From positions 1 through 64,000 of the IMG/VR virus record IMGVR_UViG_3300037067_001811: DNA of 64,000 bases; one strand, given 5' to 3'. Shown here one piece after another: positions 3,772-60,621 of this stretch (within the stretch, counting starts at the first letter, position 1; each line of letters starts with the position of its first letter). Under the pieces are notes generated by a model. The model searched no databases. It was not told the DNA's origin and saw nothing but the letters and a program-made list of their open reading frames with translations. The position numbers and the translations under genes are program-made. This stretch comes from a virus. Its lineage: Duplodnaviria > Caudoviricetes.

Positions 3772-3906
3772 GTACGTTTTGGTAAGTGAGGGGTGAGCCC
3801 TAGTGACTCACTCCTCCTGCCGAACAAGCTCCTTCAGTCTCACGACTGCATAAATGTAGATGAAGATGAAGTTGACTCACTTTGACCCTTCAGGAGCAAG
3901 AATAAC

Positions 3907-4536
3907 ATGCCCATGTACGGACAAAGCTCGGGTGACTTCAGGGAAACTAGTGGTCGTGTTCAGTTGTTCCATGTTGTAACCCGCAATTCTGTGGGTGCCT
4001 TGGCAGCAGACGCTTTCACTCAGCTCAACCCTGCGCTCATCACAGCTGCAGCAGCAAAAAGCACGACCCTAGCCAGCATCACCAAGGTTGGTGTTCTCGG
4101 AGGATCGGTTGCTTTCACCCGACCCTCAGGCAACAACCTCATCGGTGGACCGCCTGGAACCCCGGGTGCGCACAACACCAACCTCACCAACCTCGTCACT
4201 GGTGCAAGGCCCCTCGGCATCTTCATCAATGACGCAGCTGGCAATGCCTACGAGAATACTCCCGGACCAGCTTCTGGTCGTGGACCGTACGTCTCGGGCT
4301 CAGGTTCCTGTGTGGGTGTGTCCATCTACGAAACTCAGAGCCAAGCCACGGATGCAAACCTGACTTGGGCTGTTGGAAACCTTGTGTACGCAAGTGCAAA
4401 CGGTCTCCTCACTAACCTCATCGCAGAGGCTTACGAGTACTTGGCGGGAAGTACTACAACCGTAACCGTGATCGGCGTTGTCAAGGCAGTTCCGAACTCC
4501 GACACCCCCATGCTCGTGATCGATCTTCGGATCTGA
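3907..4536 (+). CDS. Capsid decoration/cement protein
   Basis: Immediately upstream of the MCP; G/A/T-rich beta protein with GNLVYASANGLLT and VIGVV; SD AGGAG. Confidence 0.6.
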   Translation: MPMYGQSSGDFRETSGRVQLFHVVTRNSVGALAADAFTQLNPALITAAAAKSTTLASITKVGVLGGSVAFTRPSGNNLIGGPPGTPGAHNTNLTNLVTGARPLGIFINDAAGNAYENTPGPASGRGPYVSGSGSCVGVSIYETQSQATDANLTWAVGNLVYASANGLLTNLIAEAYEYLAGSTTTVTVIGVVKAVPNSDTPMLVIDLRI

Positions 4537-4562
4537 TCGAAGAAAGGACAAGGACCACGAAC

Positions 4563-5432
4563 ATGGTATCCAACGAAATTAAGCAGCAGATCATCAGTGA
4601 GTACATCAAGACCGCAGCTGGCCGAGCCAAGCTTGCAGCCTCGATGATTCAGCCTCTTCGTCTTCGAAGGGATTACACGGCTGTGGGTCGTAAGACCTTC
4701 CTCGTGGAGCAACTTCCCGACGGAGCACTCCCGATCTACGACAAGGATCCCGATGTCACCGCCTACGTGGTTGGTGAAGAGGGTGAAAACATCCTTGCCA
4801 TCCAGAAGCCCCGTAGGGTCATCTTCCCGTTGTTCGAGATTGCCTCGAACCCCGAGATCCCCCTCACCCAGATCAAGGAGCGTCGCTTCGATCTGATCGA
4901 GCGTGCTCAGGATTTGGCGAAGGCTCAGATCCAGGCTGCTGAGGACGAGCGTGTGTTTGCGGTTCTGGACAGCATTGCTGTCTCGGGCTTCGACACCCTC
5001 CCCCAGACGAACCCCGACATCAACGTGGTTGCTCCAATCAGCCCAAGCGTCCTAGCGGATGCCTTTGCTGAGGTGGAACGTCACGACCTCCGCGTTGCCA
5101 GGATCTACATGAATGCGACGGACTATGCGGATATCCGCAAGTTCGGTCGTGACATCCTGGACATCGAGAGCCAAGCCGTTCTACTCAAGACTGGTCTGCA
5201 AGCGAACCTCTGGGGCGCTCAGATCATCACGAGTCGTTTGGTTCCTGCTGGCTTCGTGTACATCGCGGCGGAGCCTGAGAACTTCGGTCGCTTCCCGGTC
5301 CGTACGGAGTTGACGGTGCTTTCGGCCGACGACCCTAAGGCGAGGACGATTGGGTTCAGCTGCTTTGAAAATGTCGGCATAGGCGCATTCAACCCACGTG
5401 GACTTACACGTCTGCTTGTTACTCGCGTCTAA
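4563..5432 (+). CDS. Major capsid protein (HK97 fold)
   Basis: GRAKLAASMIQPLR..DY..VGRKTFLVEQLPDGALPIYDKD N-terminus typical of large-myovirus MCPs; strong C-ending codon bias; followed by a terminator-like hairpin. Confidence 0.85.
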   Translation: MVSNEIKQQIISEYIKTAAGRAKLAASMIQPLRLRRDYTAVGRKTFLVEQLPDGALPIYDKDPDVTAYVVGEEGENILAIQKPRRVIFPLFEIASNPEIPLTQIKERRFDLIERAQDLAKAQIQAAEDERVFAVLDSIAVSGFDTLPQTNPDINVVAPISPSVLADAFAEVERHDLRVARIYMNATDYADIRKFGRDILDIESQAVLLKTGLQANLWGAQIITSRLVPAGFVYIAAEPENFGRFPVRTELTVLSADDPKARTIGFSCFENVGIGAFNPRGLTRLLVTRV

Positions 5433-5453
5433 GCCTAACTAGGCTAGATTGAT

Positions 5454-5494
5454 GAAGGCCGGGTTTCCGAAAGGACTCCCGGCCTTCTCGTATT
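5454..5494 (+). terminator. Probable intrinsic terminator after the MCP
   Basis: gaaggccggg...cccggccttc stem with GAAA-capped inner hairpin; weak U tract. Confidence 0.65.
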
Positions 5495-5518
5495 AAAGCT
5501 CCATTAGTACCCGGGTCA

Positions 5519-5546
5519 TTGACACCTCAAAACTTCATGGTACGGT
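5519..5546 (+). promoter_or_regulatory. sigma70-like promoter giving a leaderless mRNA
   Basis: TTGACA-16 nt-TACGGT with TG extension; ATG 5 nt downstream. Confidence 0.6.
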
Positions 5547-5551
5547 TTAGC

Positions 5552-6487
5552 ATGAAGCTCGTACCTTGTCCAATCTCTGAAGCTGAACTCCGAACTTTAT
5601 ACCTGGAGACCAAGCTTACAGATTCCGAAATCGCTACTCAGGTGGGTTGCCCTCTGAAACATATTCGTCGATGGCGACACCGTTGGGGAATTGAGACTAT
5701 CTGCCGTACTGAACGACACGAGGTATTGCCAATTGAGGGTCGACTTCGATCTGTTCTTGTGGGTTCAATGCTTGGGGATGGTAGGATCTCAAAGAGCACT
5801 CATGTTGCTCGTTACATGGAGAACCATGCTGAGGATCAGAGGGACTACTTGGAGTGGAAGAGTAAGGAATGGGGTTCTTGGGTTCAACTAGGGTTGAGGC
5901 CCGTAACCTGGACTCTTCAAGGTGAAGAGTATGATGGGTGGAGATTTGAGACTGTTTCTCATTCAATTATGCTCTCATGGCATGAGTTGTTCTACCCAGA
6001 TCCAGGACCAAAGCAGCTTCACCCTCAAGTGGTAGACCTAGTTGATACTCTCGCTCTTGCGATCTGGTTCATGGATGATGGGTCATCTGGGTGGTGGCCT
6101 CGCATTACCTTTGGTATGAGACCTGAGAGCCGGGAGGTAGCTATAGCTATTCTCCGTAAGTTTAATCTCAACCCTAAGTGGGACCTGAAGAAGGATCCAA
6201 CGGGAGAGTTCATCTTCGAGGGTGAGGATCAGGCTCACCTTTTCATATCTTTGGTGAAGCCACATATGCCTGAGTGTATGCTCCACAAGCTTAACTTCGG
6301 GTTTCAGGGTGAGCAGTATCAGATCCGTCAAGTCTTGACTGAAGGAGTACTGAGAGAGTTAGCTTCTAAGGGGGTACCCATCAAAAGGATGGCCAAGATG
6401 CTAGGGGAGTCTACTACTACTGTCGATCGTCACCTTAAGAAGCATGGGATCGAGCACCCGAGGAAAGTTGGGCGACCTTCGACTTGA
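5552..6487 (+). CDS. Free-standing LAGLIDADG homing endonuclease with N- and C-terminal HTH
   Basis: VLVGSMLGDG and LAIWFMDDG motifs; start moved from the ORF-track TTG (5519, which is the -35 box) to ATG 5552. Confidence 0.85.
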   Translation: MKLVPCPISEAELRTLYLETKLTDSEIATQVGCPLKHIRRWRHRWGIETICRTERHEVLPIEGRLRSVLVGSMLGDGRISKSTHVARYMENHAEDQRDYLEWKSKEWGSWVQLGLRPVTWTLQGEEYDGWRFETVSHSIMLSWHELFYPDPGPKQLHPQVVDLVDTLALAIWFMDDGSSGWWPRITFGMRPESREVAIAILRKFNLNPKWDLKKDPTGEFIFEGEDQAHLFISLVKPHMPECMLHKLNFGFQGEQYQIRQVLTEGVLRELASKGVPIKRMAKMLGESTTTVDRHLKKHGIEHPRKVGRPST

Positions 6488-6582
6488 AGCCAGTAGTTCT
6501 TAGTTTTGACTCATCGGTCATACCGGGAACCTACTGAAACTTTCTTCTACTGCCAAGTAAACGTTCCATGCTAACCTAGGGT

Positions 6583-8886: not shown

Positions 8887-8924
8887 TCCGGCGCCACTCC
8901 GACCTTTTGACCGAGTGTTTCCAG

Positions 8925-8964
8925 AAGTTCCCTGGAGGGCCAAGCTCCTCTAGGGAACTTTTTT
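8925..8964 (+). terminator. Intrinsic terminator
   Basis: aagttccctggagg...cctctagggaactt followed by a T run. Confidence 0.8.
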
Positions 8965-9021
8965 CGTTCAAAACGATCTGAGTCAAGAAAAAAGGACCTG
9001 CTCCCGGTGTACTTCGAGGGC

Positions 9022-9444: not shown

Positions 9445-9564
9445 ACAAGGCTCTGTTTTAGGGACTATTAGCCAACTTGTGTAGTTACTTGGGTAAACTA
9501 AGGCACCACGTAGAGTGTGCCTTCAGATCCTAATAAATCAGAATCAGAAGGAAGTCGTATTACC

Positions 9565-9921: not shown

Positions 9922-9943
9922 CCTAGTCCTAAGGGACGGTACT

Positions 9944-9988
9944 GAATGCCGTGAGTCGAGTGTATCTCGATTCACGGCATTCTAGTTT
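9944..9988 (+). terminator. Long hairpin, probable terminator after HU
   Basis: gaatgccgtgagtcgag/ctcgattcacggcattc stem. Confidence 0.6.
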
Positions 9989-10120
9989 AATCCAGGCGCC
10001 GCTTCTTAGCTGAGGTCGTCTACCAATTCTGTAGGACCCTCACGGAGCCTTCAGGGAGATAAATTGTTTATAGGGGGCCTATAGATAGTGCTGGGTCAGC
10101 ACCTTCTGTAGGAGACAAAG

Positions 10121-28362: not shown

Positions 28363-28495
28363 GCCTAACGTGGAGAGTCAACCTAGCCTAATTCACGTTT
28401 TGGACAGGGAAGCTGACTCTTTCCGACGACTGGACAATTTCTGGAGGCCAAAAAACCTCTTCCTCCAGATCCAAACCCAAGAACTAATGAGGGAC

Positions 28496-28735
28496 ATGAA
28501 CCATCGATATGCAGAACTGAAGGCTGGTGAGGGAGAGCTAATGAAGCTTGAACGAGCCAGTACCTATCAGAAGCAGCTTCGGCGGTTAGAGTTCATCATC
28601 AGACGTGCAAAGTTCGTTCGCCTGTCCAATCAATTAGCTTTTGGGCAGGCGGTTTCAGACTTTTACACGGTATATGGGAAGATGCTCAGATTTCTGAAGT
28701 TTGATCAGGCAAGAGGTAAGTTACAATCCGCGTAG
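28496..28735 (+). CDS. Small basic hypothetical protein
   Basis: ATG 28496 with SD GAGGGA; the upstream part of the ORF-track call looks like a structured leader. Confidence 0.5.
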   Translation: MNHRYAELKAGEGELMKLERASTYQKQLRRLEFIIRRAKFVRLSNQLAFGQAVSDFYTVYGKMLRFLKFDQARGKLQSA

Positions 28736-29577: not shown

Positions 29578-29685
29578 GTCTAGTCGGTAAGCTTCGGCCC
29601 CCTATAAAGGGGGCCGCCTAGATGTAAAACTGAACCCAAATCACACTGTACTTCTTGACTACACCCAGATTTAGATGAGGATTGA

Positions 29686-29940
29686 ATGACAACTAAAGGA
29701 AACCCTGGTAAGGAGTTCCGAACTCCTGATTTGTACTTCGCTGCATACCTCCAGACGGCTGGAGTGGAGATGTTGCGTCCGGACAGAGAGAACAACCGAG
29801 TGTTCTTTGTCTTCGACACCTCCATAGCGAACATAGAAGAGTTGAAGGCTGGGTGGTTCAACAATACCGCCAAGGTCCCAGCTCAACCTTACGCGAACAA
29901 TATCAAAAGCCTCAAGTCAGTGTGTCATATGCAGGGGTGA
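29686..29940 (+). CDS. DUF5659-like small protein
   Basis: DLYFAAYL..AG.......RVFFVF pattern; SD GAGGA. Confidence 0.65.
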   Translation: MTTKGNPGKEFRTPDLYFAAYLQTAGVEMLRPDRENNRVFFVFDTSIANIEELKAGWFNNTAKVPAQPYANNIKSLKSVCHMQG

Positions 29941-40173: not shown

Positions 40174-41637
40174 ATGATCGACCCCAAGCAAGCCCTACTA
40201 GCCCGCGTCACTTCCCTCGTAGAGAGGACCTCAGCTACAATCCTCTGGAAGTACACGGACGAGGATGGGAAGGACTTCTACCTGTCCGAGAAAAAGGTAG
40301 GGACTATCAAGTCACCCTACACTGGGAAGTCTTTCTCGGCGAAACCTGAGAGGTCGTCTCTTACTGACGTGAGTAAGGAACTGAAGGAGGATGAGGCCAA
40401 GGTGAAGGGATCCCTCTGGAAGTACACAGACGGGGACAACAAGACCTTCTACCTCCCGGAGCGGGTCACAGGAACCCTCAAGTCACCCTACACAGGGCAA
40501 TCATTCACCCCCAAGGCTGACAAGATGAACTTTGGGGAGATTAACAAGGCAGAGAAGACCGCCTCTGCTGCTCCAGTTCTTTGGAAGTACGTTGGTGATG
40601 GTGGTGAGACCTTCTACCTCCCAGAGAAGAAGATGGGGATGGTTCGTAGCCCCTTGTTCGGGGATATCATCCCTGCAAAGCCAACCCGAGCACCCTTGTC
40701 AAGTATTGCCAAGGATCTCAGGATGAGTGGGAACCCTTCTACAGTGATTTGGGAGTATACTGATAAGGACGGGAAGAAGTTCTACTTGGATGCTCGCAGA
40801 AGGGGGACTCTCAAGTCACCTTATACGGGTCAGTCTTTCCAGGCAGAGGCTGTTCGGCTTCCACTTGGAGAGGTAGGTCAGCCTGTAAGTGACCCAACAG
40901 CTGTTGACCCAGCAGCTGCTGAGCTTGAGGAGCTTCAAGACCTACTTCAGTCTCGAGGGTATAACCCAGCGGATGCTGCTATCTTCCAATCGGAGGGCAT
41001 GGGGCCAACGGAGCTTGAAGAGCGACTCGATGATGAAGGTAGTCTTGAGCGATCACACGGTATTGTAAAGTTAGCAGGTCAGATCCAGGAACCTCCAGTT
41101 GAGAAGGAAGAAAAGGAGGAGGGTCAGGACAAAACAGCTGCTCTGAAGGACTCTGACAAGAAGGTAGTTGATGCCTTCTATGAGAAGAAGCCTGCTGAGG
41201 GTAAAGTGCTTACCACTGACGGTAAGACTCTAGAGAAGAATGGCATGGGGGGTCATAACTTTGCCAAGTGGGAAGGTGACAAGATCGTGATCGATCCCAC
41301 TCGACCCCAAGTAAAGAATGACGAAGAGATCCTTCGCTATATGAAGAAGTCCATCCCCTCAGGTAGTCTAGCTCCTCACTCCTTCTTTGGTAAGTCAGCT
41401 AAGGTTGCTGAGGAGTTCATCACTAGGGGTCCGAACCATCCGGCTATTCTTGCACTGAAGAAGGCCTTTGATGAGGTAGTTGCATCTCTTAGTGAGGCAC
41501 GAGTGGGTACGGATGGGCTCAAGAACGCCTCTACTCAAGGCCCTGAGATCCTTATGGCTAAGGTGCAGCCTCAGGTGCAGAAGCTTGCTGAGGTATCGGC
41601 TCTTGTCGCTAAGCAGATGGAAGAGCGATTGACATGA
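40174..41637 (+). CDS. Multidomain repeat protein (4x W.Y...DG..FYL...SP..G)
   Basis: Four ~50-aa repeats, then domains flanked by KTA/KLA/KSA/KVA. Confidence 0.75.
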   Translation: MIDPKQALLARVTSLVERTSATILWKYTDEDGKDFYLSEKKVGTIKSPYTGKSFSAKPERSSLTDVSKELKEDEAKVKGSLWKYTDGDNKTFYLPERVTGTLKSPYTGQSFTPKADKMNFGEINKAEKTASAAPVLWKYVGDGGETFYLPEKKMGMVRSPLFGDIIPAKPTRAPLSSIAKDLRMSGNPSTVIWEYTDKDGKKFYLDARRRGTLKSPYTGQSFQAEAVRLPLGEVGQPVSDPTAVDPAAAELEELQDLLQSRGYNPADAAIFQSEGMGPTELEERLDDEGSLERSHGIVKLAGQIQEPPVEKEEKEEGQDKTAALKDSDKKVVDAFYEKKPAEGKVLTTDGKTLEKNGMGGHNFAKWEGDKIVIDPTRPQVKNDEEILRYMKKSIPSGSLAPHSFFGKSAKVAEEFITRGPNHPAILALKKAFDEVVASLSEARVGTDGLKNASTQGPEILMAKVQPQVQKLAEVSALVAKQMEERLT

Positions 41638-42326
41638 GCTCACCTTTTGACTTGGACCCGGAACACCCCGGGGTTAGTTCCTCCGCTACTCCTCCAGATG
41701 ACGCAACTTTTGTCATCTGGCAGGATCCTTCATCATACAACCCACTTTTTCACGGGCCTCCTTACTTGCCCGGAATGAAGGTTCGCATGGACAAGGCAGC
41801 TTCACTCAAGACCGCAGGAACAATAGCTTCGAAGTTAGCACATGGGTCTGGAACGGGTTTACCCACAGCTCTTGTATTCCTTCGAGCTCTGACGATGATC
41901 CATCAGGGTCATCATTGGTTGACTTTTGGTGAATCCTACTACGCCGATCACCTCCTCTTTGAGCGTCTCTACGATGAGACCTTAGAGGAGGTTGATGCAG
42001 TAGCGGAGAAGGCTATTGGGGTTGGTTGTCCTAAGGACAAGATTCACCCTGGGTTGCAGGCCACCTTTATTACCAAGGTAGTCCAACTCTTCTGCGGTGA
42101 CGGTCAGAACGAGAGTATGGCAGGCGACCCCAAGAGTTACCTCGAAGCAAGCTTGAAAGCTGAGGAGCTCCTACTCTCTAGTCTAGCCGCTATCGCCGCT
42201 GAGATGAAGGAGAATGGGGAGTTGACACGAGGAGTGGACAATCTCCTTGCAGGGATTGAAGACAAGCATGAGGGGCATGTGTACCTCCTCAAGCAGAGAC
42301 TAACGCCAGACCCTTGGAAGGTCTGA
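41634..42326 (+). CDS. Dps/ferritin-like protein with N-terminal extension
   Basis: HQGHHW..FG..YYADHLLFERLY....EEVDAVAEK...HE.HVYLL. Confidence 0.75.
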   Translation: MSSPFDLDPEHPGVSSSATPPDDATFVIWQDPSSYNPLFHGPPYLPGMKVRMDKAASLKTAGTIASKLAHGSGTGLPTALVFLRALTMIHQGHHWLTFGESYYADHLLFERLYDETLEEVDAVAEKAIGVGCPKDKIHPGLQATFITKVVQLFCGDGQNESMAGDPKSYLEASLKAEELLLSSLAAIAAEMKENGELTRGVDNLLAGIEDKHEGHVYLLKQRLTPDPWKV

Positions 42327-42364
42327 GTCACAGATCAGAACAAACCAGATGAAAAGGTAGACAT

Positions 42365-45201: not shown

Positions 45202-45636
45202 ATGCCCAAATATGAATTTGAGTGCCAGTGCTGCCACGCCAGATTTGATCGAGTCCTGAAGATCGGTAACCACCCGACCCATGAGTGCCCCTCCTGTGGA
45301 GATGAGGCCCCCAGATTGTTTGATGGGAATGGGTTTGGATTTGGTTTTGCAGCGGGTGGATCAGCTCCTGCTAACTCTGGTGTCCACGAACAAGATTACC
45401 CTACGGCTGATAAGGTTATTGGCCGAAGTGCGGAGGAACGTTGGGGCACCTATAAGAAGCGAGACAAGGTTAAGAACGAAGTACGTCGAGTCGGTGGGGA
45501 TCAAGCTCTATCCAGAGTGGATGGGGAGGGTTACGTGGACTACATGGCCATGAATCCTGCCGAGAGGGAAGCCCGAGGGAAGCTTGTTGATTACGCGGTG
45601 ACTATGGAGAAGCAACCTGAAGTAAAAGCAGGGTAA
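45202..45636 (+). CDS. FmdB-like zinc-ribbon protein
   Basis: MPKYEFECQCC...ECPSCG. Confidence 0.75.
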   Translation: MPKYEFECQCCHARFDRVLKIGNHPTHECPSCGDEAPRLFDGNGFGFGFAAGGSAPANSGVHEQDYPTADKVIGRSAEERWGTYKKRDKVKNEVRRVGGDQALSRVDGEGYVDYMAMNPAEREARGKLVDYAVTMEKQPEVKAG

Positions 45637-45653
45637 TCTCCGCCTCTAGTAAA

Positions 45654-45898
45654 GAAGAGGTGGTTTGGCTTTCTAAGCTTTAGGGTTGTTCAATACTTCA
45701 CTTGTACCTTCACTAAAGCCAAAGACTCGAAAGAGTTGACCGCCACCTCTTCGGAGTGGGACAGCAACAATAGGCCCAGACTGATAGATCAAATTGGAAG
45801 TAGAACCTGAGACCTAGATCAGACTGCTAAGACCCATATTAGATACAGATCAGACCAGATCATAGATGTAGATCGTCCACGAAGTCAGGAGATTTATC
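45654..45898 (+). promoter_or_regulatory. Structured 5' leader of the sheath gene with AGATC repeats
   Basis: gaagaggtgg/ccacctcttc closing stem, inner stems, then a periodic AGAT tract and SD AGGAG. Confidence 0.55.
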
Positions 45899-48800
45899 AT
45901 GAGTATGGGCCCTTTTGCAACTTATGTCCAACCAGGTGTCTACTCTCGAACGTTGACCGAAGCGAATGTGGCCGCTCTTGTAGCAGGTCTGCGCATTCCG
46001 TTCATCATCGGAGTTGGTCAAGAAGAACTCGAGCAAGATGACCTCGAGATGGTTCGCGGTTCCTCATCCACCTTGGATGAGCAGATCATCAACGAGGACA
46101 TTAGTTCTCGCTGGGTTGTTGATTCAACTAACCCTACTAGTCTAGTCCTAGGGGTCCAAGATGGAACCCGAGTTCAGTTCCAGGTTAGGAATTACCCTGT
46201 TGTTGATGGGCAGGGGTTTGGTCGCATCTCGAATGATGTTCGGACCATCACAGTTACGGTCAATGGGGCTCCCGTTGCTCTTGGGGCTCTCGTTGGCAGC
46301 ACTGGCGTAGTAACTCTCCAGGTTCCGACTCAGCCTTCAGACACGGTCCGAGTCACCTACTTCTTCCATCGTGGTGATACCGCGTTCCAGGATGACGTCT
46401 CAAAGCAGGTTAGTACCTCTCCTGCTCAGATCGTTACCCCAGGGTATGCTCCCTTCACTATTAATGCTGGTTCCAATGACACCTTGAGGGTTACTCTCGA
46501 CGGTGGAGTTGAGAAGACTATGGTCTTCTTGCCGGCGGCAGCTGCTACGGCCGCTAACCTCAAGACTCAGATCGATGCAGCCCTCGGGGTTGGTATTGCA
46601 GGGGTTTTCACTGACAACCTTGGTCAGGACCACCTGACGTTCACCTCTCCTTCGTCAGTCCTGATTGGTACCGGAAGTGTCAATGGCATTCTCGGTCTCG
46701 CCAATGGGCAATCGGCAAGTGGGAATACTCAGTTCAGGGTCTTTCAGATCCCGGTTGTAGATGGTTCTTCGGGTGGAGTAACGACAACTGACACTTCGAA
46801 GGTAGTCGTCAAGGTCAATGGGACTCAGGTCATCCCAACGGCCCTCGATGGTACCAACGGCATTGTGACCTTGGCGATTGCACCGCCTCCAAGTTCGACG
46901 GTGACGGTTCAGTACTACGCCAATACGTGCCAGGATACCTTCGACTACCTCCCCAACCCGTTGGTGACTAACGTCATTCGTTCGGGTATCAGCCCCGGTA
47001 GGTCGGATTACATCCAGGGCCAAGACTTCGTGATCATGAATCCGAGTCCGGATGTATCCATCGTTCACTGGGGGACCAGCTACTCGGTATCCTCAACTCT
47101 CAATACCCCTGGAGCAGAGCCCTTCGATAGCTCACAGGTCATCCCAACCTTGGTGGATGATCGGTTGTACTTAGTTCCTTGCACGAACTTCATCGATACC
47201 TCGGTGGTTCCAGCTTCGGTTAGCAGTACGGTGTTCCTGCTTCCAGCAGTACCTACGACCGGTAACGGCCGCAATACTGTCCTTGGGCAGACGGACTTCA
47301 ACGCTGTTGCCAATGGTCGCCAGGACCTCGTTACTAACCGACCTGACTTGGTGATTGCTCGGGTAGGTAGGACTCTTGGGGACGCCCTCATTCGTCCTGA
47401 GGCTAAGGTTCTCGCAGTTGACGGTCCTAATCGGAAGATCACCCTTAGGGATCCGATTCCGGCTGACTGGAACGTCTATGCGACCTTCTACTACAGCCGA
47501 ATCACCGATGATACTTACATCCTGACCAATCAGGTTGCAGGGCCCATCGGTACGGGGCAGTACACGGTCTTCTCCTCACTCACGAACACGAACCTCTACC
47601 AGGTTCGCTTCATGGGCAAGGGTGGTCTATCTCAGATCGTTCAGTGGCCGCGTGGAGTCGAGCAGGTTCCAGACGCTATGTACACGGGTGCGGGAACTCC
47701 GGTTTCCGAGACCGTTACAGTTACCTTCGGAACAGCTGCAGCTCGTGGAGCCGTCTATACGAACGAAGGGGCCGCTCCTTACTCGTTCTACAATACAGCC
47801 TCGGCTACTTGGAGAACTCTAGTCAATAGTGTGACGGTTTCTACGAACCTGAGCACTGCTGCAGGGGCTTACTTGGTAGGTCAGTCAGTGGCTATCCCTG
47901 GTGGGAACATCACTGTCCCTGCTTCGCCAAATAACGTTCTGAATCTGGTCATTGATGGGCAGGCTGTTACTGCAACCCTGACTGCTGGTGCTCAGACTCC
48001 AGCGGCCATTGCTGCTACAGTCAATGCGGCCATCGATGCTGTCCTAACAGGTACGAATAACCTGTTCACTCCGATCCCAGGGCCAACTGGCTACACCAAC
48101 TTCGTGATCCGAAGCCTCACCGCTCCGGCAGCACTTCCTGGTGGGTTCGATGCAGTGAGCTCGGTACTTGTAGGTCAGGGTACAGTTGAAAACCTCTTGG
48201 GCTTCACTACCTTCCAGAGTGCAGTGGGTACCGCAGGTGCCATCAACAAGCCGGCAACCCTGTTGGGGTCCATTCCTGAGACCTTTGTGATCACCGCTGG
48301 TGTGAACGATAGCCTCAAGTTGAGGATTAACGGGATCGACTTTGCGGTCACCTTGAATACCTCCTCAACAACAGCGGCCAACATCGTCACTGACATCAAC
48401 GGGGTAATCTCCTCACAGGGTACGGCAACGGCTGGGACCTTGGCGAATGTTGGTAAGGTCAGGATCACCAGCAACGTCAACACCTCGGCTTCCTCAATCC
48501 TCATCTTGGATGGTAGTGCAAATGACACCCTTGGCTTCAGTCAAGGTGACTTTGCGAGCCAAACCCTCGTTGGAGCTCAAGAGGTTACTGATGCTCTGAT
48601 GGGTACAGTTGGGTTTGCAGTGTCATCTTGGACACCCCCAACACCTATTGCCGGTGCGGTTGCCTACCCAACAACGGTCAATGGTCAGACTTATGTCACC
48701 ATTGCATCGCTGACCACTGGTATTGCTACTAGCAGTGTAGGGTTCGTCACAGGAAGCAACTCGGCCTTCAATGTTACCACTGGAACTGGGATCCTTCCTG

Positions 48801-50173: not shown

Positions 50174-50276
50174 GTCCCAATTATCTGTTGTAAAATCAAC
50201 ACTTTACAGCAAGATTCGAACTTAGTAATTGACAGGGCCCACTTTGGTAGTATCCATACCGAAGTGGGCCCTTGTC

Positions 50277-52187
50277 ATGCCAAGAAGAAATAACAGCGCA
50301 ACCCCAGAGGATACCTACGAGTCTTTTGCCACAGCTGAACCATTTAAGGTTCTGGCAAAGAGATACCTCGTTAGCCCAAATACTTTACGATCTTGGTGGG
50401 TTGCAAAGTTTGGAAAGGAAGCCTTTGATGCACGAGGCAAGCGAATTCAATCTCAAGCCGCAGTGGCTTTTGGGGCCTCTCGTAAAGGAACCTCCCACAC
50501 GATAGGCTTGGTCACAGAGCCTTGTGCAAAGTGTGGAGTAGTGGTTGAATTGAACCTTCTTCAGAAGGTTCGATCAAAGCAAGTTTTATGTCCTACTTGT
50601 GCTGACTCTGAGCGTGGGGTTGATCGGTCTTGCTCGGTTTGCGGGATCGGTTGTGTAGGGGTGAAGGGCCTAGCTATGCATTTAGCTCAGGTTGAGGATC
50701 AGGCTCATACCAAGCACCTCCAAACTGAATTGAACCTTAGGTGGGAGAGTCAGGTTGAAAACAGGGACTATGTGTCATGTCTATTGTGTGGGCATAAGGC
50801 TGTAACTCTAGCTAGGCATTTACTAGCAGAGCATAAAATCACGGCTGAACAGTATAAGATGCAGTTTCCGGGCACCCTTATCCGGTCTGAGAGCTTGACA
50901 GCCTCTCGAACTAAGGCTGCAAAACACTCACATGAGGCAAGTCCACGTAGGGGACTAACTAAGACCATTCTGTGTTCAACTTGTGACAGAGAGTTTGATG
51001 TCTCTACCTTCTTCGCCTACTCAACTCATGACTCTAGGTGCCCTGAGTGCAAGCAGGCTGACCTTGATGCCGCAGATCTATCCAAGTGGAAGGGGAAGTC
51101 AGAACCAGAGGACTATGTTACTTGTCAGGTATGCGGGCATCGAGCAGAGAGTCTGACTTCTCATATTAGTAGTGAGCACCAAACCCTTGTTGGGCGTTAT
51201 GAAGCCATTCATCCTAATTTCAAACTCATAGCTCTATCTTCTAAACTTCATGGTCCTTCAGTCCTTAGGGGGCGAACCTTGTCGGATGAGGTTAGGGCCA
51301 AGATGTCAGGAAATGCCGGAAGGTGGAATCAAGGTCTGACTAAGAACACTGATGTTCGAGTCGCTAGTGCTGCTGAGGCGATGAAGGGGCGAACTCCTTG
51401 GAATGAGGGTCTTACAAAGGAGGATCATTCGAGTCTTCAGAGTACGTCAGAGAAGCTGTCGGCCCTTAAGTTAGGTGTTCCTAATGATGCTACAAGGCTA
51501 GACCTTTCCCTGATCGACTTCACTCCCTACCTTGATGAGGTAGGTGCTGTAGATCTCAAGATCATGGCGGAGGAACTGGATATTTGTGACCTAACTTTGA
51601 GAAAGTACATGAGTTCTCTTGGGCTCCGGAGTTCAACCAAGTACATTGAAGCTAGGGCGGAGCGGCAGATCATTAGGTTGGAGAAAGATGACCTACTGCC
51701 ATTTAGGTTGAAGAATGGCAAGGTAGTCGTAGCTTCAGCTATGGTTGGGCTCAAGAAAGACTACAAGGTCATAAAGCGAGAGTGCCTTCGACATGACTTG
51801 GAAACCTTTACTCACGGTATCCGTCAAACCATTTGCCTAGATGCTATATCTAAGACTCTCGGGAGTGCTACTTTTGAACAAGAGTGGAAGTCATGGAGGT
51901 TTGTGAACCCTCTCTCTGGTCATCGTTTTCGTTTTGATGGATACTTCCCCTCTCACGACTTGGTAGTAGAGTTCCATGGGTGGCAGCACTGGGTGTTCCC
52001 CTCTGTGTATATTAAGAAGGAAGAGCTGTTCTTCGCACTTCAAGAGCGTGACCGGATTAAAGAGAACCTGATTCACTCTGATCCAACCCTTCGGTACTTC
52101 CTAGTCCGAGAGGATGAGCCCTATGCGGACCTTGAGTATCTTCGTGGAAGGTTGATTGACGAAGGGATCTTAGATCCAGGCAAGTAG
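50277..52187 (+). CDS. Zn-finger-rich homing-type endonuclease (NUMOD-like repeats plus PD-(D/E)XK-like domain)
   Basis: Multiple CxxC/C2H2 motifs; two WN.GLTK; FRFDGYF...VVEFHG.QH; ATG 50277. Confidence 0.75.
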   Translation: MPRRNNSATPEDTYESFATAEPFKVLAKRYLVSPNTLRSWWVAKFGKEAFDARGKRIQSQAAVAFGASRKGTSHTIGLVTEPCAKCGVVVELNLLQKVRSKQVLCPTCADSERGVDRSCSVCGIGCVGVKGLAMHLAQVEDQAHTKHLQTELNLRWESQVENRDYVSCLLCGHKAVTLARHLLAEHKITAEQYKMQFPGTLIRSESLTASRTKAAKHSHEASPRRGLTKTILCSTCDREFDVSTFFAYSTHDSRCPECKQADLDAADLSKWKGKSEPEDYVTCQVCGHRAESLTSHISSEHQTLVGRYEAIHPNFKLIALSSKLHGPSVLRGRTLSDEVRAKMSGNAGRWNQGLTKNTDVRVASAAEAMKGRTPWNEGLTKEDHSSLQSTSEKLSALKLGVPNDATRLDLSLIDFTPYLDEVGAVDLKIMAEELDICDLTLRKYMSSLGLRSSTKYIEARAERQIIRLEKDDLLPFRLKNGKVVVASAMVGLKKDYKVIKRECLRHDLETFTHGIRQTICLDAISKTLGSATFEQEWKSWRFVNPLSGHRFRFDGYFPSHDLVVEFHGWQHWVFPSVYIKKEELFFALQERDRIKENLIHSDPTLRYFLVREDEPYADLEYLRGRLIDEGILDPGK

Positions 52188-56479: not shown

Positions 56480-56482
56480 GTC

Positions 56483-57391: not shown

Positions 57392-57400
57392 TCTTCCTCG

Positions 57401-58246
57401 ATGAGTGAGCTTCAGTTTCAGGTTACCGTTGACCCTGGTCACCCTTCAGTGGTCGATAGTGCCATCTGCTTTGAGACTGGAGCCCGAGTAGACCAATTGG
57501 TGCCAGGGGTCTATGAGCACCATGGGGTGGGCTTTGACGCTAGCTCACCTGGTGCGCTGCCTAAGTTCTTTGAGGATCTGATCTGTGGTACTCCTTTCCC
57601 TCTGAACTTTGCTACGCATGGGGTTCGAGGTCCCGATACGGTTTTAGCTATCACCTTGTTCATGCATCGAGATCTCGCATTGAACCCGGCGACCCTTGGT
57701 CTCGTGTATGGAGTGGACCTAGTGCATAGGCTAGGACCTTCTATGTTATCACACTTGGACCCCACAATATCTGGGTTCTTGAGGTCTTTCAATAGGTTCT
57801 TCCCAGAGAAGCTGTCTAAGCTTGAGCGTGGGGAGCGTATTGCAACCGCGGTTCAATGGATCAGGGAGTATCTAGTTGACGGGAGAATACCAAGCCTAGG
57901 GGGGCAGCTCCCTGATGTTCGAGTGATAGACATAGGGACCAATGGGTTTGTACTTGCGGAGACGCTCAATCCCTCTGTTGAGGCTTGGGAGGTCCTATAC
58001 CGGAGAGGTTTCCTCCGAGGGTTACTCATAGGACCCGAGGTGGATGGATCACGACCTGTTTTGGCGTCACGAAAGAATGTTCGAGCATGGTCGACCCTCC
58101 CTCAGTGTATTCCGTTCTTAAATGATCTTGACTCTATTTCCGGGGGTGATCCGGAATGGCGTCAAGAAGGGGATAATCTGAGATCACCCTCTGTAGGCAC
58201 TAAGATCCTAGTATCCCACCTGTTAGAAGTGTTTTTGAGATTCTAA
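57401..58246 (+). CDS. Hypothetical protein, possibly DHH-phosphoesterase-like
   Basis: YEHHG and GPDT motifs; no SD; GGTGTA 10 nt upstream. Confidence 0.55.
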   Translation: MSELQFQVTVDPGHPSVVDSAICFETGARVDQLVPGVYEHHGVGFDASSPGALPKFFEDLICGTPFPLNFATHGVRGPDTVLAITLFMHRDLALNPATLGLVYGVDLVHRLGPSMLSHLDPTISGFLRSFNRFFPEKLSKLERGERIATAVQWIREYLVDGRIPSLGGQLPDVRVIDIGTNGFVLAETLNPSVEAWEVLYRRGFLRGLLIGPEVDGSRPVLASRKNVRAWSTLPQCIPFLNDLDSISGGDPEWRQEGDNLRSPSVGTKILVSHLLEVFLRF

Positions 58247-58252
58247 CTAGTT

Positions 58253-58423
58253 GTGAACTCACTGTTGGTACGCACCCTCCCTGTTGACACCCTAGTAGAC
58301 TTGGAAGACCCTGATATCCCTCGGTCACCTCCAATGCCTAACTTCCAACGGGAGAGGGATACCATCCCCTGTCCACCACCTTCTCATGTGGAGGGGTACC
58401 TGGAAGAGGATTCGCTATCGTGA
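58253..58423 (+). CDS. Small Pro-rich acidic peptide (56 aa)
   Basis: Fills the intergenic gap: MNSLLVRTLPVDTLVDLEDP...RDTIPCPPP. Confidence 0.35.
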   Translation: MNSLLVRTLPVDTLVDLEDPDIPRSPPMPNFQRERDTIPCPPPSHVEGYLEEDSLS

Positions 58424-58451
58424 ATCTTGTTGTAGGCCTTCTTCTTAGTAG

Positions 58452-59636
58452 ATGGCTAAGCTGGTCACGGTCGCAACCGATGGATTTCGAGACTACGTTT
58501 CCCTTCCAGGGGGGCGTCAGATCAATCTCGGATCAATATCGGTATTGAAGTTGGTCACCTCCTTAGTGAAGGGGGTCAACCCTTGTCGACGAGCTTTGAA
58601 CGCCTTCCTAAAAAATAGGCAAGTAGTCATCTCGGTGGACCTAGAGGAATTGGAAGACCTACTGAAGCCGAAGAGGTCTCGATGGGCCTGCCATGATGAT
58701 CTGTTTATCCCAAATGGTTTTCGTCAACTTGTTAGAGGCACTAGCATGAACCCAGAGACATCCCAAGCTGAAGCGATCAACCAGAAGATTGCAGCAATCG
58801 AAGAGGGGTTAGACCTTCTTGATAAAGCTGCAACTGAACATGCTAGTGAGGGTGAGGTTGCTGGCTTAGTTGCCTCCTTATCTAGTTTGGTCTCCGATTT
58901 AGGCAGTGATTCTATTGAGAAGACTGCTGCTGTTGATAAGGACTTGATGCAGGAGTTGCTCCTTTTCATGGAGAATGAAGACTCCATCTTCAACCAGAAG
59001 GAAAGCATCATCAAGAACATCATGCGCAAGAAGAAGCGTGGTGTTTATGATCCTTCCCTTGCCCCCAAGCTTTGGCTGTACTGGGTTGATAACGGAGCGG
59101 TAGCTTACGTTAAGAAGGGGGGCATCAATACCCCGGGGAAGAAGTACTTCCCTATTGAACTCCGTAGGGCATTGGCAGAGCAGATTGCCAAGAGTGAAGA
59201 GAAGATGATTGAGGATGGTGATTACAGCTCAATCAAGGTAGCTGGGGATGAGCAGGATCAGGGTCAAGTTGATCAGGTCCAGGGAAAAGAAGCTGGTGAG
59301 GACAAGGATGAAGGCGAGGACAAGAAGAAGTCCCTACCCCCTTGGTTAGAGAAGAAGGAAGCTTCTACCCCTGTTTACTACAAGCTCGCTGCTGCGGATG
59401 TACCTGTTATCAACGAAGCCCTTGCCCATTCGGTCATGGCTAAGATCGATCTAGCTCTTGGAGTGGTAGATACCAGCACCAAGAAGAACGCTCATCTGGC
59501 TAAGAGTGACCTGAATAAGATTAGCAGCCAGCTTTCAACGCTTATTACAGGTGCGGATCTTGGAGACCCGACTCTCTGTACTCCTCTCAAGGAGTTGGCC
59601 GTGATGGCCGATAAGATTCACACACATTTCAGCTGA
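58452..59636 (+). CDS. Multidomain protein with KxA-flanked modules (possible head-cargo polyprotein)
   Basis: EKTAA-[ELLLFMEN...YD..LAPKLW]-IKVAG; KEAG, KEAS, KLAA; LPPWLEKK. Confidence 0.7.
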   Translation: MAKLVTVATDGFRDYVSLPGGRQINLGSISVLKLVTSLVKGVNPCRRALNAFLKNRQVVISVDLEELEDLLKPKRSRWACHDDLFIPNGFRQLVRGTSMNPETSQAEAINQKIAAIEEGLDLLDKAATEHASEGEVAGLVASLSSLVSDLGSDSIEKTAAVDKDLMQELLLFMENEDSIFNQKESIIKNIMRKKKRGVYDPSLAPKLWLYWVDNGAVAYVKKGGINTPGKKYFPIELRRALAEQIAKSEEKMIEDGDYSSIKVAGDEQDQGQVDQVQGKEAGEDKDEGEDKKKSLPPWLEKKEASTPVYYKLAAADVPVINEALAHSVMAKIDLALGVVDTSTKKNAHLAKSDLNKISSQLSTLITGADLGDPTLCTPLKELAVMADKIHTHFS

Positions 59637-59674
59637 CCTGTGCAGTAATTGGAAACTAAGGACGGAGTTTAACA

Positions 59675-60400
59675 ATGGGATCTCCTCGAGAACTTGACAC
59701 TTTCATCTACCGCATGGGTACTGCTCCTAACACTAGGGTTGCAGTTTCGCAAAAAAACAAGGTATTTTCTTACATGGTAGGCAAAAACAAGTTCCAACAG
59801 ATCGGTGTGGTCTCGGAATTTGGATTTGATGAGTCCAGGACCATTGATCCGGTGCGTGGGGTTGGTTTTGGTGACATGGTGGCCGAATTGGTCCCTGGTG
59901 TCACTGAGCCGATGACTCTCACGCTTAACAGGACCCTCCTGTACACCGTGAACATCTTCCAGACGTTGGGTTACAAGGGTGGCGTGGAGGGCCTAGTCAG
60001 GTCTCTTCGACACCACAGGTGGCCCTTTGACATCAAGCAAGAGCTGGTCTTCAGTGAGATCAGTTCCAAGGAGGATATCAGTGGTGTGCCACTGGCTCCG
60101 AAGAAGGCCACTACTCAGCCGCAGGGTGTCAACAACATCTACGCCTCTGAGATCAAAGCCCTCTTCACCTTCTTTGAGGGTTGCTGGTTGAACAGCTACT
60201 CCGCTTCGTTCACCTCGGATTCAGCTATCGTAGCAGAGAACAGCTCTGTAACTGTAACTGACATCATTGATGGTGTTTCGAATTACGGAGAGTTCATTGA
60301 CTCCGGTCTATCTCCTGCTGGTGGTGGTTCTGCTGGTGCTGGTTACTCACTCCGCTTTGCGGGTGGTACTCAGCCGGCTACCAACGTCACTGGAGCGTAG
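59675..60400 (+). CDS. Tail tube protein
   Basis: IG.V..F...ESR.....RG.G.GD...ELVPG; WPFDI; FEGCW..SYS; lies upstream of chaperones and tape measure. Confidence 0.8.
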   Translation: MGSPRELDTFIYRMGTAPNTRVAVSQKNKVFSYMVGKNKFQQIGVVSEFGFDESRTIDPVRGVGFGDMVAELVPGVTEPMTLTLNRTLLYTVNIFQTLGYKGGVEGLVRSLRHHRWPFDIKQELVFSEISSKEDISGVPLAPKKATTQPQGVNNIYASEIKALFTFFEGCWLNSYSASFTSDSAIVAENSSVTVTDIIDGVSNYGEFIDSGLSPAGGGSAGAGYSLRFAGGTQPATNVTGA

Positions 60401-60621
60401 TGTAGAGGAGGCCCCCTAATCAACGGGGGCCTCAGATGAGATTGGACAAGCGGCATCGGATGTAAATGAAGATCACTTAGATCAGATCCAGATTATTTCC
60501 CCTCGGACTCCCTCACCGGAGCAAAGATTAGAACACCGAGACGGAATGTAGATGTACACTCACTGCTCTGCCGTACCCGCGAAGTCCTTCTCACACCATA
60601 TTTCTGTTGAAAGGGTGCGAG

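Follow-up and report, generated by a model that had tools for sequence, protein, structure and literature searches.

TRAP, a protein not known outside Bacillus and its relatives, binds sites in RNA, some of which overlap the Shine-Dalgarno sequence, blocking translation. These sites consist of 11 GAG/UAG triplets with 2-3 spacer bases, i.e. a period of 5-6 nt, and are wrapped around an 11-subunit ring (PMC3913778). In the mRNA of T4 gene 32, a folded 5' element is followed by more than 40 nt of less structured sequence that includes the ribosome-binding site and carries several short repeats (UUAAA/UAAA), along which the fold nucleates cooperative binding of the single-strand-binding protein (PMC535899). 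These two would seem to be the closest analogues of the leaders described here, which are sense-strand runs of a short AGAT-like unit, repeated every 5-6 bases and adjoining hairpins. As in gene 32, a hairpin is followed by an array of units and then by the Shine-Dalgarno sequence. Yet, the units are RRAY(C) instead of being made of U and A alone, a plain covarying hairpin takes the place of the T4 pseudoknot, and the element precedes five different genes, none of them an SSB, so there is no single autogenous loop; nor was any SSB-family gene detected in these phages. The likeness to the trp-related leaders of Bacillus lies in the period, the purine-purine-A-pyrimidine core, the mostly pyrimidine spacers and the overlap of some units with the Shine-Dalgarno sequence. 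Unlike in TRAP sites, the best-kept base is the A after AG, G reaching only 0.7 in an EM matrix of the unit; AAAT and GAAT units are common, and contiguous runs (at least three units) comprise 3-6 units, within leaders of up to 13 that are split by hairpins. The phages searched have no gene of the TrpBP family.

The first-pass annotation of the window (the whole stretch of 64,000 nucleotides analysed here) had placed such leaders before seven genes. The tracts and hairpins it quoted are all present where it put them, and the observation is real but narrower than was claimed. Data from relatives uphold five members, i.e. the leaders of the tail sheath, of a 370-aa tail-region gene (g60607), of the head decoration/capsid gene, of an actin-like gene of the Volactin family and of a small DUF5659 gene (Table 1). 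The HU leader is weak: its hairpin and AGATCC are kept in G006 and partly in G007, with only 1-3 units in these two relatives. The seventh fails. The run AGATCC AAACCC AAGAAC at 28466..28484 (+) is not a leader, since it is coding sequence of the gene at 28370-28735. The frame of this gene begins at 28370, and its N-terminal part is maintained at the protein level, a relative having 78% identity over 121 aa. The element is carried by this megaphage fragment and by dozens of uncultured relatives with genomes of up to ~400-500 kb. These relatives have been binned into MAGs of seven unrelated lineages.

Table 1. Positions of the leaders and associated features in the window.
Feature	Position	Strand	Remarks
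Decoration/capsid leader, small hairpin CAGTC..GACTG	3835..3848	+	3 nt before array
Decoration/capsid array AAATGT AGATGA AGATGA AGTTGA	3852..3875	+	55 nt before ATG
HU leader, hairpin and AGATCC..AAATC AGAATC	9500..9551	+	weak, possible member
DUF5659 leader, 9-bp GC-rich hairpin, no U tract	29595..29616	+	folding and covariation
CCT-AGATGTA, then GAACC / AAATC units	29617..29645	+	GATGTA invariant in relatives
CAGATTT AGATGAGGA, units running into Shine-Dalgarno	29666..29685	+	DUF5659 ATG at 29686
DUF5659 gene, 84 aa	29686..29940	+	single copy in every tract-bearing genome tested
Actin-like leader CAGATC AGAAC AAACC AGATGA-AAAGG	42331..42357	+	reaches Shine-Dalgarno
Terminator-like hairpin with T-rich tail	45640..45673	+	3' of upstream gene
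Sheath leader array	45777..45874	+	~13 units (AGATC, AGACC, AAATT, AGATGT...) at 5-6 nt; ends 12 nt before Shine-Dalgarno
Sheath ribosome-binding region AGGAGAT..ATG	45887..45901	+	Shine-Dalgarno overlaps one further AGAT unit
g60607 leader, GC hairpin GAGGCCCCC..GGGGGCCTC, then directly AGATGAGATTGG	60408..60433	+	dG -20.3
Invariant block AGATGAGATTGGACAAGCGG	60434..60453	+	RNAalifold on 7 leaders
Array block A (GGATGT AAATGA AGATCA..TAGATC AGATCC AGATT)	60457..60494	+	chain scan, relatives
Array block B (AAGATT AGAAC .. GGAATGTAGATGTACAC)	60523..60559	+	conserved in relatives
Proposed closing helix, 3' strand (CCGC..GTCC..TCTC), then CTCACACC pairing GGTGCGAG	60577..60624	+	RNA folding

Across leaders the unit has the consensus (Y)RRAY(C), e.g. 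AGATC, AGATGT, AAATC or AGACC, with A at 0.95 in position 3, two purines before it and a pyrimidine after. There are 3-13 units per leader, and the proposed periodicity holds up well: successive units are 5 nt apart 51 times and 6 nt apart 35 times, rarely 7-9 nt. In the window, AGAT is the top intergenic 4-mer (31 copies, 2.1 times the coding density) and the only strict chains of at least four AGAT are at 45841-45873 and 60470-60493, against 0.08 predicted by shuffles. When each leader interval was compared alone with composition-matched shuffles, only that of the sheath was clearly non-random within the window (14 RRAY units against 7.2 expected, P 0.0005; chain of 6, P 0.0015). The DUF5659 interval was marginal (chain of 4, P 0.017) and that of g60607 weak (unit count, P 0.045); the actin-like (P 0.06) and decoration (P 0.07) intervals fell short of significance, and HU (P 0.2-0.4) and 28440-28500 (P 0.4-0.5) were not significant.

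Comparison with relatives revealed a strand-specific family of tracts before the same small set of virion-module genes. The Y-R-R-A-Y-C unit is common to the sense strands of 34 non-redundant sheath leaders, from phages whose sheath proteins are 55-78% identical and whose GC content ranges from 49 to 67%. AGAT is their top 4-mer, with 112 copies to 17 of its reverse complement; for AGATC the two counts are 54 and 2, although such leader counts overstate independence because the relatives are phylogenetically linked. Genome-wide, there are few clusters of units, each of them on the coding strand, where a Markov model predicts about zero. We ranked leaders in six related genomes, two of them complete (512 and 407 kb). 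Five were positive (G000, G001, G002, G006 and G007): the sheath and g60607 leaders took ranks 1-3 among 37-407 leaders, that of the sheath being first or second in five of the six. The AGAT-repeat leaders very probably are a conserved and undescribed control signal before a few virion-module genes.

The hairpins, of which each leader has one or more, are kept in structure and not in sequence. That of the DUF5659 leader shows compensatory changes at 8 of 9 pairs among 16 relatives, and the stem GGCCCCC..GGGGGCC is indeed shared by 29595-29616 and 60408-60433, as the annotation had noted, though in relatives the stems are free to covary. The hairpin stops 3 nt short of AGATGTA in 11 of the 21 leaders of DUF5659 that were tested, and in 19 of 59 when leaders of all genes are counted. 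A covariance model trained solely on DUF5659 leaders (R1) scores 46 bits at 29617-29645; over 1.29 Mb it picks out decoration leaders, those of three relatives, and no further sites. It thereby recovers the decoration hairpins of relatives independently (E 0.002-0.08). Decoration, DUF5659 and actin-like leaders of relatives retain either the hairpin with CYT-AGATGTA or the AGATGA-Shine-Dalgarno form. Near the decoration gene, AGATGTAGATG(A/T) is kept 54-55 nt from the start in four relatives and lost in more distant ones. The actin-like tract fills its 38-nt intercistronic gap up to the Shine-Dalgarno sequence, and CAGATGA followed by a purine-rich Shine-Dalgarno is found in the majority of the 23 non-redundant relatives shown. 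Units also overlap this sequence in the DUF5659 leader (AGATGAGGA; RRATG..GG form in 20 of 39 leaders of relatives) and in that of the sheath (GGAGA followed by T or C in 21 of the 28 leaders of relatives having GGAG).

We think there is about an even chance that the tracts are an RNA-level operator, i.e. a hairpin and a single-stranded periodic array read by a cooperative or ring-type RNA-binding factor. We infer all three of its parts: action in RNA, reading by a protein and sign of the effect. The annotation had already suggested a post-transcriptional regulon. The covarying hairpin 3 nt before AGATGTA, the overlap of units with the Shine-Dalgarno sequence and a sequestering helix before g60607 (see below) fit a role in RNA, as does the somewhat lower pairing of unit cores compared with other leader positions (0.48 vs 0.55, P 8.5e-6), a small difference; two of the seven members are weak or failing, and a role as late promoters in DNA keeps some likelihood. 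Under this alternative, which we regard as unlikely, AGATGTAGAT-type units would act as late promoters or be bound by a late activator or a phage sigma factor, the hairpins before them would terminate transcription coming from upstream, and the array would amount to repeated -10-like or activator sites. The phages do encode sigma70 region-2-like proteins, and AGATGTAG resembles an abundant early-region motif, GGTGTAG, found 14-17 nt before start codons, GATGTAG being one base away from it; hence a promoter role is possible for part of the element. RRATGTARA is enriched 5-8 times between genes, and in four genomes it stands ahead of the genes for decoration, DUF5659, sheath and g60607. Phages normally have only a few late promoters each (four in P2 and in Mu). 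The annotation described the hairpins as devoid of U tracts, which is true in general but not of the one at 45640-45673, which is terminator-like; therefore a new transcript should start between it and the sheath array, and a promoter must be nearby. The T4-type late promoter is likewise an 8-bp element (TATAAATA, no -35 box), and here the 8-mer TAGATGTA recurs before a few late genes of phages with sigma-like genes. Yet, unlike the T4 element, it is repeated many times, tied to an RNA hairpin and variable in place: the ATGTA-type unit comes first in the arrays of some relatives and last in those of others, 24 to 180 nt from the ATG. There is no conserved -35-like partner, the upstream DNA being a freely covarying hairpin, and a consensus sigma-70 scan gave no match on the sense strand. 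Arrays extend up to and into the Shine-Dalgarno sequence. Finally, a 5-6 bp period with drifting unit number loses helical phase; the drift in number and placement of units between relatives fits a flexible single-stranded ligand and not helically phased DNA sites.

The g60607 leader also bears on translation. Its hairpin at 60408-60433 is kept in relatives with altered stems and weakly matches R1. The block that follows (60434-60453) contains three short stretches complementary to 60577-60592 in RNAalifold predictions on 7 leaders; we propose that they form a long-range closing helix, for which no covariation is available. The block was considered as a small conserved ORF and rejected, because it is conserved across a 1-nt indel in relatives that shifts the frame. 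Directly before the ATG at 60622, the conserved CTCACACC/GGTGCGAG helix is predicted to sequester the Shine-Dalgarno and start region, and in a second class of relatives CATCCTC pairs with GAGGATG at the same place, so the start region is paired in two sequence classes. A start locked in a conserved helix is the classic situation for ribosome standby, reportedly described by de Smit and van Duin and known from the tisB system. Long, A-rich strands that pair poorly and lie between hairpins might let the 30S subunit wait, via S1, by structured starts and raise the translation of abundant proteins independently of any factor. We find this rather improbable, even if the tracts (41% A, 18% G) are flanked by stable hairpins, resembling in the g60607 leader the single-stranded tracts of standby sites upstream of a sequestered start, and the phage genomes searched yielded no dedicated binding protein. 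Standby sites lack a set repeat unit and a period, and absence of structure alone leaves unexplained a unit so well defined at GC contents of 49-67%, the sharp 5/6-nt spacing and the invariant CYT-AGATGTA beside the hairpin.

It is more doubtful still that the units (R-N-A-U-Y) serve as RNase E-type entry or cleavage sites in long late transcripts, with hairpins protecting 3' or 5' ends and giving selected cistrons their own half-life, as for papA in the pap operon. Salmonella cleavage maps are said to show a loose RNase E preference for R-N/W-U, which the units fit; hairpins without U tracts directly follow upstream stop codons, and the gaps before the decoration, DUF5659, actin-like and g60607 genes leave little room for promoters. 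However, RNase E sites need no period and prefer U at +3, where the units have C, and arrays entering the Shine-Dalgarno sequence would ruin the very message that follows them. That the tracts are an accident of composition, or microsatellite-like, picked up by eye is hardly credible. Five of the seven intervals are individually not significant in the window, and many unrelated viral contigs have exact (AGATC)3-type runs (75 of 84 inside open reading frames), but the near-zero Markov expectation and the comparative data contradict such an accident: relatives with as little as 55% sheath identity still share the unit, its strand, its period and its association with the same genes, even as stems and the sequence between units turn over.

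What might read the RNA-level operator? Homologues of TRAP (TrpBP family), Hfq, CsrA, RRM, S1, CSD and SSB were searched for in the phage genomes and none was found. Leaders and sponge RNAs bound by CsrA/RsmA also carry several short unpaired motifs, many of them within or next to hairpins, and one such motif overlaps the Shine-Dalgarno sequence, but CsrA needs GGA cores, and GGAT is a small minority here (GGATC, 11 of 364 units). The annotation had proposed the DUF5659 protein as an autoregulated factor. This is a guess. All that speaks for it is that the gene has a stereotyped leader, is highly conserved and is missing from two outgroup phages in which there are no tracts either, a co-absence that is confounded by phylogeny. 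Its structural model (pLDDT 84) had no significant match among solved folds. The reader may come from the host, or it may be a phage protein of a new kind.

With an operator in RNA, the element would be a clade-specific cis-regulatory part of the mRNA of a few late genes, those of the virion module, whose products would presumably all be abundant. The array may act as a multivalent landing site for a single-stranded-RNA-binding protein, which would bind either as a ring, each subunit taking up one unit in the manner of TRAP, or cooperatively, starting from a folded nucleation site like T4 gp32 on its own mRNA. Once bound, the protein would set the use of the ribosome-binding site, and perhaps also the life-time of the mRNA, acting either as a repressor by occlusion or as an activator by opening the g60607 helix.

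Five, perhaps six, late-gene leaders of this phage share an element that is real and conserved and seems not to have been described. The first-pass annotation had proposed seven leaders in which AGAT-like units (given here as RRAY(C)) recur each 5-6 nt, and every leader string that it quoted was indeed found in its place. AGAT is the commonest intergenic tetramer of the window (31 copies, 2.1 times the coding density), and strict chains of at least four AGAT occur only in the leader of the sheath gene and in that of g60607, the gene of a 370-aa tail-region protein, against 0.08 such chains expected. When the claimed intervals were tested singly against shuffles of their own composition, the sheath leader alone was clearly non-random, with 14 RRAY units against 7.2 expected (P 0.0005) and a chain of six units spaced 5-7 nt (P 0.0015). 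The DUF5659 leader was marginal (P 0.017), the g60607 leader weak (P 0.045), and the decoration, actin-like, HU and 28496 intervals showed no significance. On the evidence of the window by itself, most of the claimed family would fall. It was upheld, in its reduced form, using relatives. The tract before 28496 (AGATCC AAACCC AAGAAC) was rejected as a leader, since it lies inside a reading frame whose N-terminus is protein-conserved across relatives, and the HU leader is weak, retaining in relatives just the hairpin and 1-3 units.

We fetched 52 relatives of the sheath gene (55-78% identical, GC 49-67%), nearly all of which have the same tract type at most 150 nt before the start codon. The AGAT periodicity is thus conserved in related phages, both before sheath genes and in the orthologous leaders of other virion genes. 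AGAT heads the tetramer count in 34 non-redundant sheath leaders (112 copies vs 17 of its reverse complement), AGATC is found 54 times and its reverse complement GATCT twice, and TAGAT is enriched 32-fold relative to sheath coding sequence. The unit found by an EM motif search is (C/T)-A(0.84)-G(0.73)-A(about 0.95)-T(0.71)/C(0.25)-C(0.63), with ~7 sites per leader. Successive units are spaced by 5 nt in 51 cases and by 6 nt in 35, distances of 7-9 nt being almost absent, and the spacers are C, CC, GT or T-rich. Contiguous runs mostly count 3-6 units, and the most frequent units in all leader families are AGATC, AGATG, AAATC, AGACC and AGATT. This strand bias, and the fact that merely 27% of units hold GATC, led us to reject a Dam/SeqA-type GATC cluster.

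Which other genes carry the element was assessed by scanning whole four further relatives and two complete genomes, each leader being scored by its sense-strand matrix hits. The sheath and g60607 leaders rank 1-3 in the relatives G000, G001 and G002 and in the complete genomes G006 (407 leaders) and G007 (271 leaders). Naturally, the sheath rank is circular, because the matrix was trained on sheath leaders, whereas that of g60607 is not. The DUF5659 leader comes second in G001 and fifth in G006, and the actin-like leader third or fourth in G002 and G000. Strict unit clusters in the complete genomes are very few and on the coding strand only; a Markov model would predict close to none. RRATGTARA, a longer variant of the unit that typically reads AGATGTAGAT, is present in the decoration, DUF5659, sheath and g60607 leaders of G000, G001, G006 and G007 and is over-represented 5-8 times in intergenic DNA. 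Neither Tunturi_5 nor LR745208 has tracts 5' of its sheath gene, and in decoration leaders the tracts fade as capsid identity drops to about 82-91%. Hence, the element is confined to one clade. A more distant DUF5659 gene (L243, G012:C21:120890-123563) has a leader hairpin followed by GGATAGATAGGGAG, where units with a 4-nt period extend into the Shine-Dalgarno site, which is the same idea as in the arrays. A breadth scan of IMG/VR for exact AGATCAGATCAGAYC returned many matches in unrelated contigs, 75 of 84 lying inside long open frames; the nine non-coding matches resemble unrelated simple repeats.

The window is the opening 64 kb of a 92,305-bp viral contig with nearly all genes on the + strand. 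Among these are genes for an HK97-type capsid protein, a tail sheath of 1,424 aa, an HU homologue, an actin-like protein of the Volactin family, LAGLIDADG endonucleases and a DUF5659 protein. Completeness is rated at 18-23% for related contigs of 88-111 kb, and the complete relatives with terminal repeats measure 512,571 bp (G006) and 407,078 bp (G007), so the source phage most likely has a genome several hundred kilobases long. By capsid identity, the closest isolates are Tunturiibacter phage Tunturi_5 (48%) and Bacillus phage G (38%). Capsid relatives sit in MAGs of seven unrelated lineages, e.g. Actinomycetota, Altiarchaeales, Legionellales, Methylobacter, Anaerolineaceae and Nitrospirae, a spread that is plainly a binning artefact and does not point to a host. 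Contigs of the clade among GTDB genome contigs (L230-L237, one of 127 kb) likewise lie inside MAGs labelled Lysinibacter, Altiarchaeales, Legionellales, Methylobacter, Anaerolineaceae and Nitrospirae, and the presence of phage contigs in unrelated public MAGs is likely binning contamination. Between the source phage and G001, G006 and G007, identity of the capsid protein is 97.6-99.7%, although the same genomes have diverged far more in the sheath (69-73%), in the decoration protein (65-79%) and in the g60607 protein (46-55%). A near-identical capsid amid diverged neighbours suggests that its gene is under extreme purifying selection or was recently exchanged. Directly after the sheath gene, a 652-aa protein carries a ROS/MucR zinc-finger DNA-binding domain (E 2.8e-13) and a zinc ribbon, an unusual finding within a virion module. 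Directly upstream of the actin-like gene lies a ferritin/Dps-like protein gene, whose final codons form a hairpin, AGACC..GGTCT, just 5' of the actin-like leader tract.

Coordinates in the window of the leaders (+ strand) and of neighbouring features, with the form seen in orthologous leaders
Feature	Position	Form in orthologous leaders
Decoration/capsid leader	3788-3906	Small hairpin, CYT, then AGATGTAGATG(A/T)AGATG, 54-55 nt from ATG
Decoration leader hairpin	3835-3848	
Capsid protein gene	4563-5432	
HU leader	9500-9564	
HU leader hairpin	9500-9523	
Tract before 28496 (rejected)	28466-28484	
DUF5659 leader	29595-29685	Strong GC hairpin, CYT-AGATGTA, more units, AGATGAGGA at Shine-Dalgarno site
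DUF5659 leader hairpin	29595-29616	
Ferritin/Dps-like gene	41634-42326	
Actin-like leader	42327-42364	CAGATGA, then purine-rich Shine-Dalgarno site; intercistronic gap 25-38 nt
Terminator-like hairpin	45640-45673	
Box upstream of sheath	45691-45708	
Sheath leader	45777-45874	
Strict AGAT chain, sheath	45841-45873	
652-aa protein gene	50229-52187	
g60607 leader	60408-60621	
g60607 GC hairpin	60408-60433	
g60607 first invariant block	60434-60453	
AGATGTAR start-stop pairs and short ORFs, e.g. a 9-codon ORF from 60436	60434-60462	
Strict AGAT chain, g60607	60470-60493	
g60607 second invariant block	60577-60592	

The hairpins stood up to a covariation check, with compensatory changes at 8 of the 9 predicted pairs in 16 DUF5659 leaders, and the leader hairpins are under structural selection. 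Exactly 3 nt separate the end of the stem from AGATGTA in 11 of the 21 tested DUF5659 leaders, and in 19 of 59 when all leaders are counted. A covariance model built from DUF5659 leaders only finds the decoration leaders of G007, G001 and G006 (E 0.002-0.08) and weakly matches the g60607 hairpins, with no matches beyond these in 1.29 Mb. In Rfam, the window has no match at gathering score, and the sheath and g60607 leaders have none at E <= 1. The earlier remark that the hairpins lack U tracts was borne out: those of the DUF5659, g60607, decoration and HU leaders precede CYTAGATG-type sequence and not T runs. We rejected them as intrinsic terminators for want of this tract, which only the terminator-like hairpin upstream of the sheath leader possesses. 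Sheath leaders run from a first hairpin (often CCGG..CCGG) through array A, one or two sequence-unrelated hairpins and array B to the Shine-Dalgarno site. In partition-function folds, unit cores are slightly less paired than the remaining leader (0.48 vs 0.55, P 8.5e-6). Units extend to the Shine-Dalgarno site in DUF5659, actin-like and sheath leaders, and a unit touches the ribosome-binding site as GGAGA(T/C) in 21 of 28 GGAG-bearing sheath leaders and as RRATG..GG in 20 of 39 DUF5659 leaders. Some 150-200 nt upstream of the sheath start, in the window and in the relatives' sheath leaders, there is also a conserved box, CAATAAAG..CTTGT or CAATACTTCACTTGT, which in the window is downstream of the terminator-like hairpin. 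This box, noticed by eye in relatives, is a candidate promoter or RNA element.

The leader of g60607 is the most elaborate, with a GC hairpin, an invariant block, two array blocks and a second invariant block. Three short stretches of the second invariant block are complementary to the first, and a long-range helix between them stays a mere proposal because both blocks are without variation. After the second block, CTCACACC pairs with GGTGCGAG directly 5' of the ATG, in a helix that joins 60590-60597 to 60614-60621, and in a second class of relatives CATCCTC pairs with GAGGATG at the equivalent position. Since different sequences pair at one place, occlusion of the Shine-Dalgarno site and start is conserved. 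The invariant 5' block survives a 1-nt indel that shifts any reading frame, and is thus not a peptide. AGATGTAR units yield ATG-TAA/TAG start-stop pairs and short ORFs, e.g. one of 9 codons within this leader; small ORFs were rejected as a functional element of the leaders, their frame not being preserved between relatives.

The reading that we favour, at about even chances, is that the arrays are an RNA-level operator, in which a hairpin, periodic units and a protein control access to the ribosome-binding site. The hairpin would mark a boundary or nucleate binding, a ring-shaped or cooperatively binding protein would occupy the periodic single-stranded units, and unit occupancy would set the access of the ribosome. 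We put this forward because the period, the drifting number and position of units, the covarying hairpin, the overlap with the Shine-Dalgarno site and the sequestered g60607 start all fit. The effect could have either sign: repression in view of the units that lie over the Shine-Dalgarno site, activation or standby in view of the locked g60607 start.

One might speculate that the arrays act instead in DNA, as late-promoter or activator sites, given that the phages encode sigma-like proteins and that GATGTAG is one base off the early-region motif GGTGTAG. This is rather unlikely, as the ATGTA unit has neither fixed position or distance nor a -35 partner, and the arrays continue into the Shine-Dalgarno site. 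No sigma-70-type promoter (-35/-10 hexamers, 16-18 nt spacing) was found on the + strand of 45500-46000 or 60300-60700, in a scan that covered the sigma-70 consensus and not the promoters of phage sigma factors. The early motif, (Y)GGTGTA(N)T, has 128 intergenic sites in non-structural regions of G006 (L077-L102) and G007 (L103-L123). Many of them lie 14-17 nt before an ATG, and many form an inverted pair (TACACC..GGTGTA). The late structural block nearly lacks the motif, which in the source genome occurs only near contig position 90843, beyond the window. It is probably an early promoter, giving perhaps leaderless or very-short-leader mRNAs.

A factor-free ribosome standby or enhancer tract would agree with the A-rich composition and flanking hairpins of the arrays, but it leaves their defined unit and period unexplained, and we regard it as unlikely. 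For an RNase E-type processing module the unit is a loose match to R-N/W-U, yet the periodicity and the C at +3 do not match, making this very unlikely. That the arrays arose by chance is hardly credible, the comparative data contradicting it. Several other candidates were rejected. GAUCC could pair with GGAUC of the universal 16S rRNA 3' tail, and only about a quarter of units hold GATC. Against a Rho loading site, the tracts are rich in A and hold about as much C as G, and their period is too short. An antisense partner would require complementary-unit clusters, of which there are none on transcribed strands.

Of the known systems, those nearest to the arrays are TRAP sites and the operator of T4 gene 32. 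The arrays would work alike but belong to neither: the units differ, the controlled genes are neither SSB nor trp genes, and the phages searched have no TrpBP, SSB, CsrA, Hfq, RRM, S1 or CSD gene. In the gene 32 operator, a folded element is followed by UUAAA/UAAA repeats including the ribosome-binding site, and nucleation by cooperative binding (PMC535899). The leaders here share this arrangement, with a covarying hairpin 3 nt before the array, but their units are RRAY(C). Gene 32 control is also autogenous, acting on a single-strand-binding gene, whereas the genes downstream of the arrays encode sheath, decoration, actin-like, DUF5659 and 370-aa proteins, and no SSB-family gene was found. 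TRAP sites comprise 11 GAG/UAG triplets, set 2-3 nt apart, which wrap an 11-subunit ring (PMC3913778). The arrays have the same 5-6 nt period, but TRAP needs 9-11 (G/U)AG triplets with 2-3 non-conserved spacer bases, whereas the array unit is (C/T)-A/G-G/A-A-T/C, with G at only about 0.7 and the next A at about 0.95, in runs of mostly 3-6. CsrA/Rsm targets, with GGA cores, one of them at the Shine-Dalgarno site, and a CsrA protein, are not matched and were rejected: GGAT-type units are rare and the phages searched have no CsrA gene.

What might read the arrays? CsrA, RRM, TRAP, Hfq, S1, CSD and SSB were all missing from the two complete and three partial genomes searched, a search that covered phages and not their host. 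TrpBP (PF02081) likewise had no match in the phage genomes G000, G006, G007, G008 and G009, with the control matched in Bacillus subtilis. That the arrays are operators of a new phage-encoded post-transcriptional regulon, read by an unrecognised small RNA-binding protein for which the DUF5659 protein is the best candidate, we hold to be quite unlikely. Starting at the hairpin, such a protein would assemble along the RRAY units, either cooperatively or as a ring, and might gate how the main virion genes are translated, thereby tying the output of virion protein to infection state. The DUF5659 protein (84 aa) is ~90% identical between phages whose sheaths are ~70% identical, its gene is single-copy in all five tract-bearing genomes tested and absent from Tunturi_5 and LR745208, both without tracts before the sheath gene, and its own leader bears the most stereotyped copy of the element. 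Its model, from an alignment of 36 relatives, is a beta-alpha-beta-beta-alpha-alpha fold (pLDDT 84) with no significant structural neighbours (Foldseek E >= 0.6, VIA-align Z <= 3.8). We found no PDB sequence match and no literature for this protein, whose family has no functional name. As judged from these patterns of sequence and occurrence, the DUF5659 protein is no more than a lead as possible reader of the arrays.

Phages with genomes of hundreds of kilobases are, to our knowledge, known almost only via metagenomes, and we know of no description of how their late gene expression is controlled. Here, one plain sequence signal tags the same few virion-module genes over dozens of uncultured genomes of very different base composition, providing a testable handle on the late regulon. 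Baits such as (AGAUC)n plus hairpin, or hairpin-CUUAGAUGUA, could serve to capture the reader protein. Within the clade, the arrays are a simple annotation marker for late, highly controlled genes, and, after TRAP and gp32, they may be a second natural case in which a protein reads an RNA array with a 5-6-nt period.
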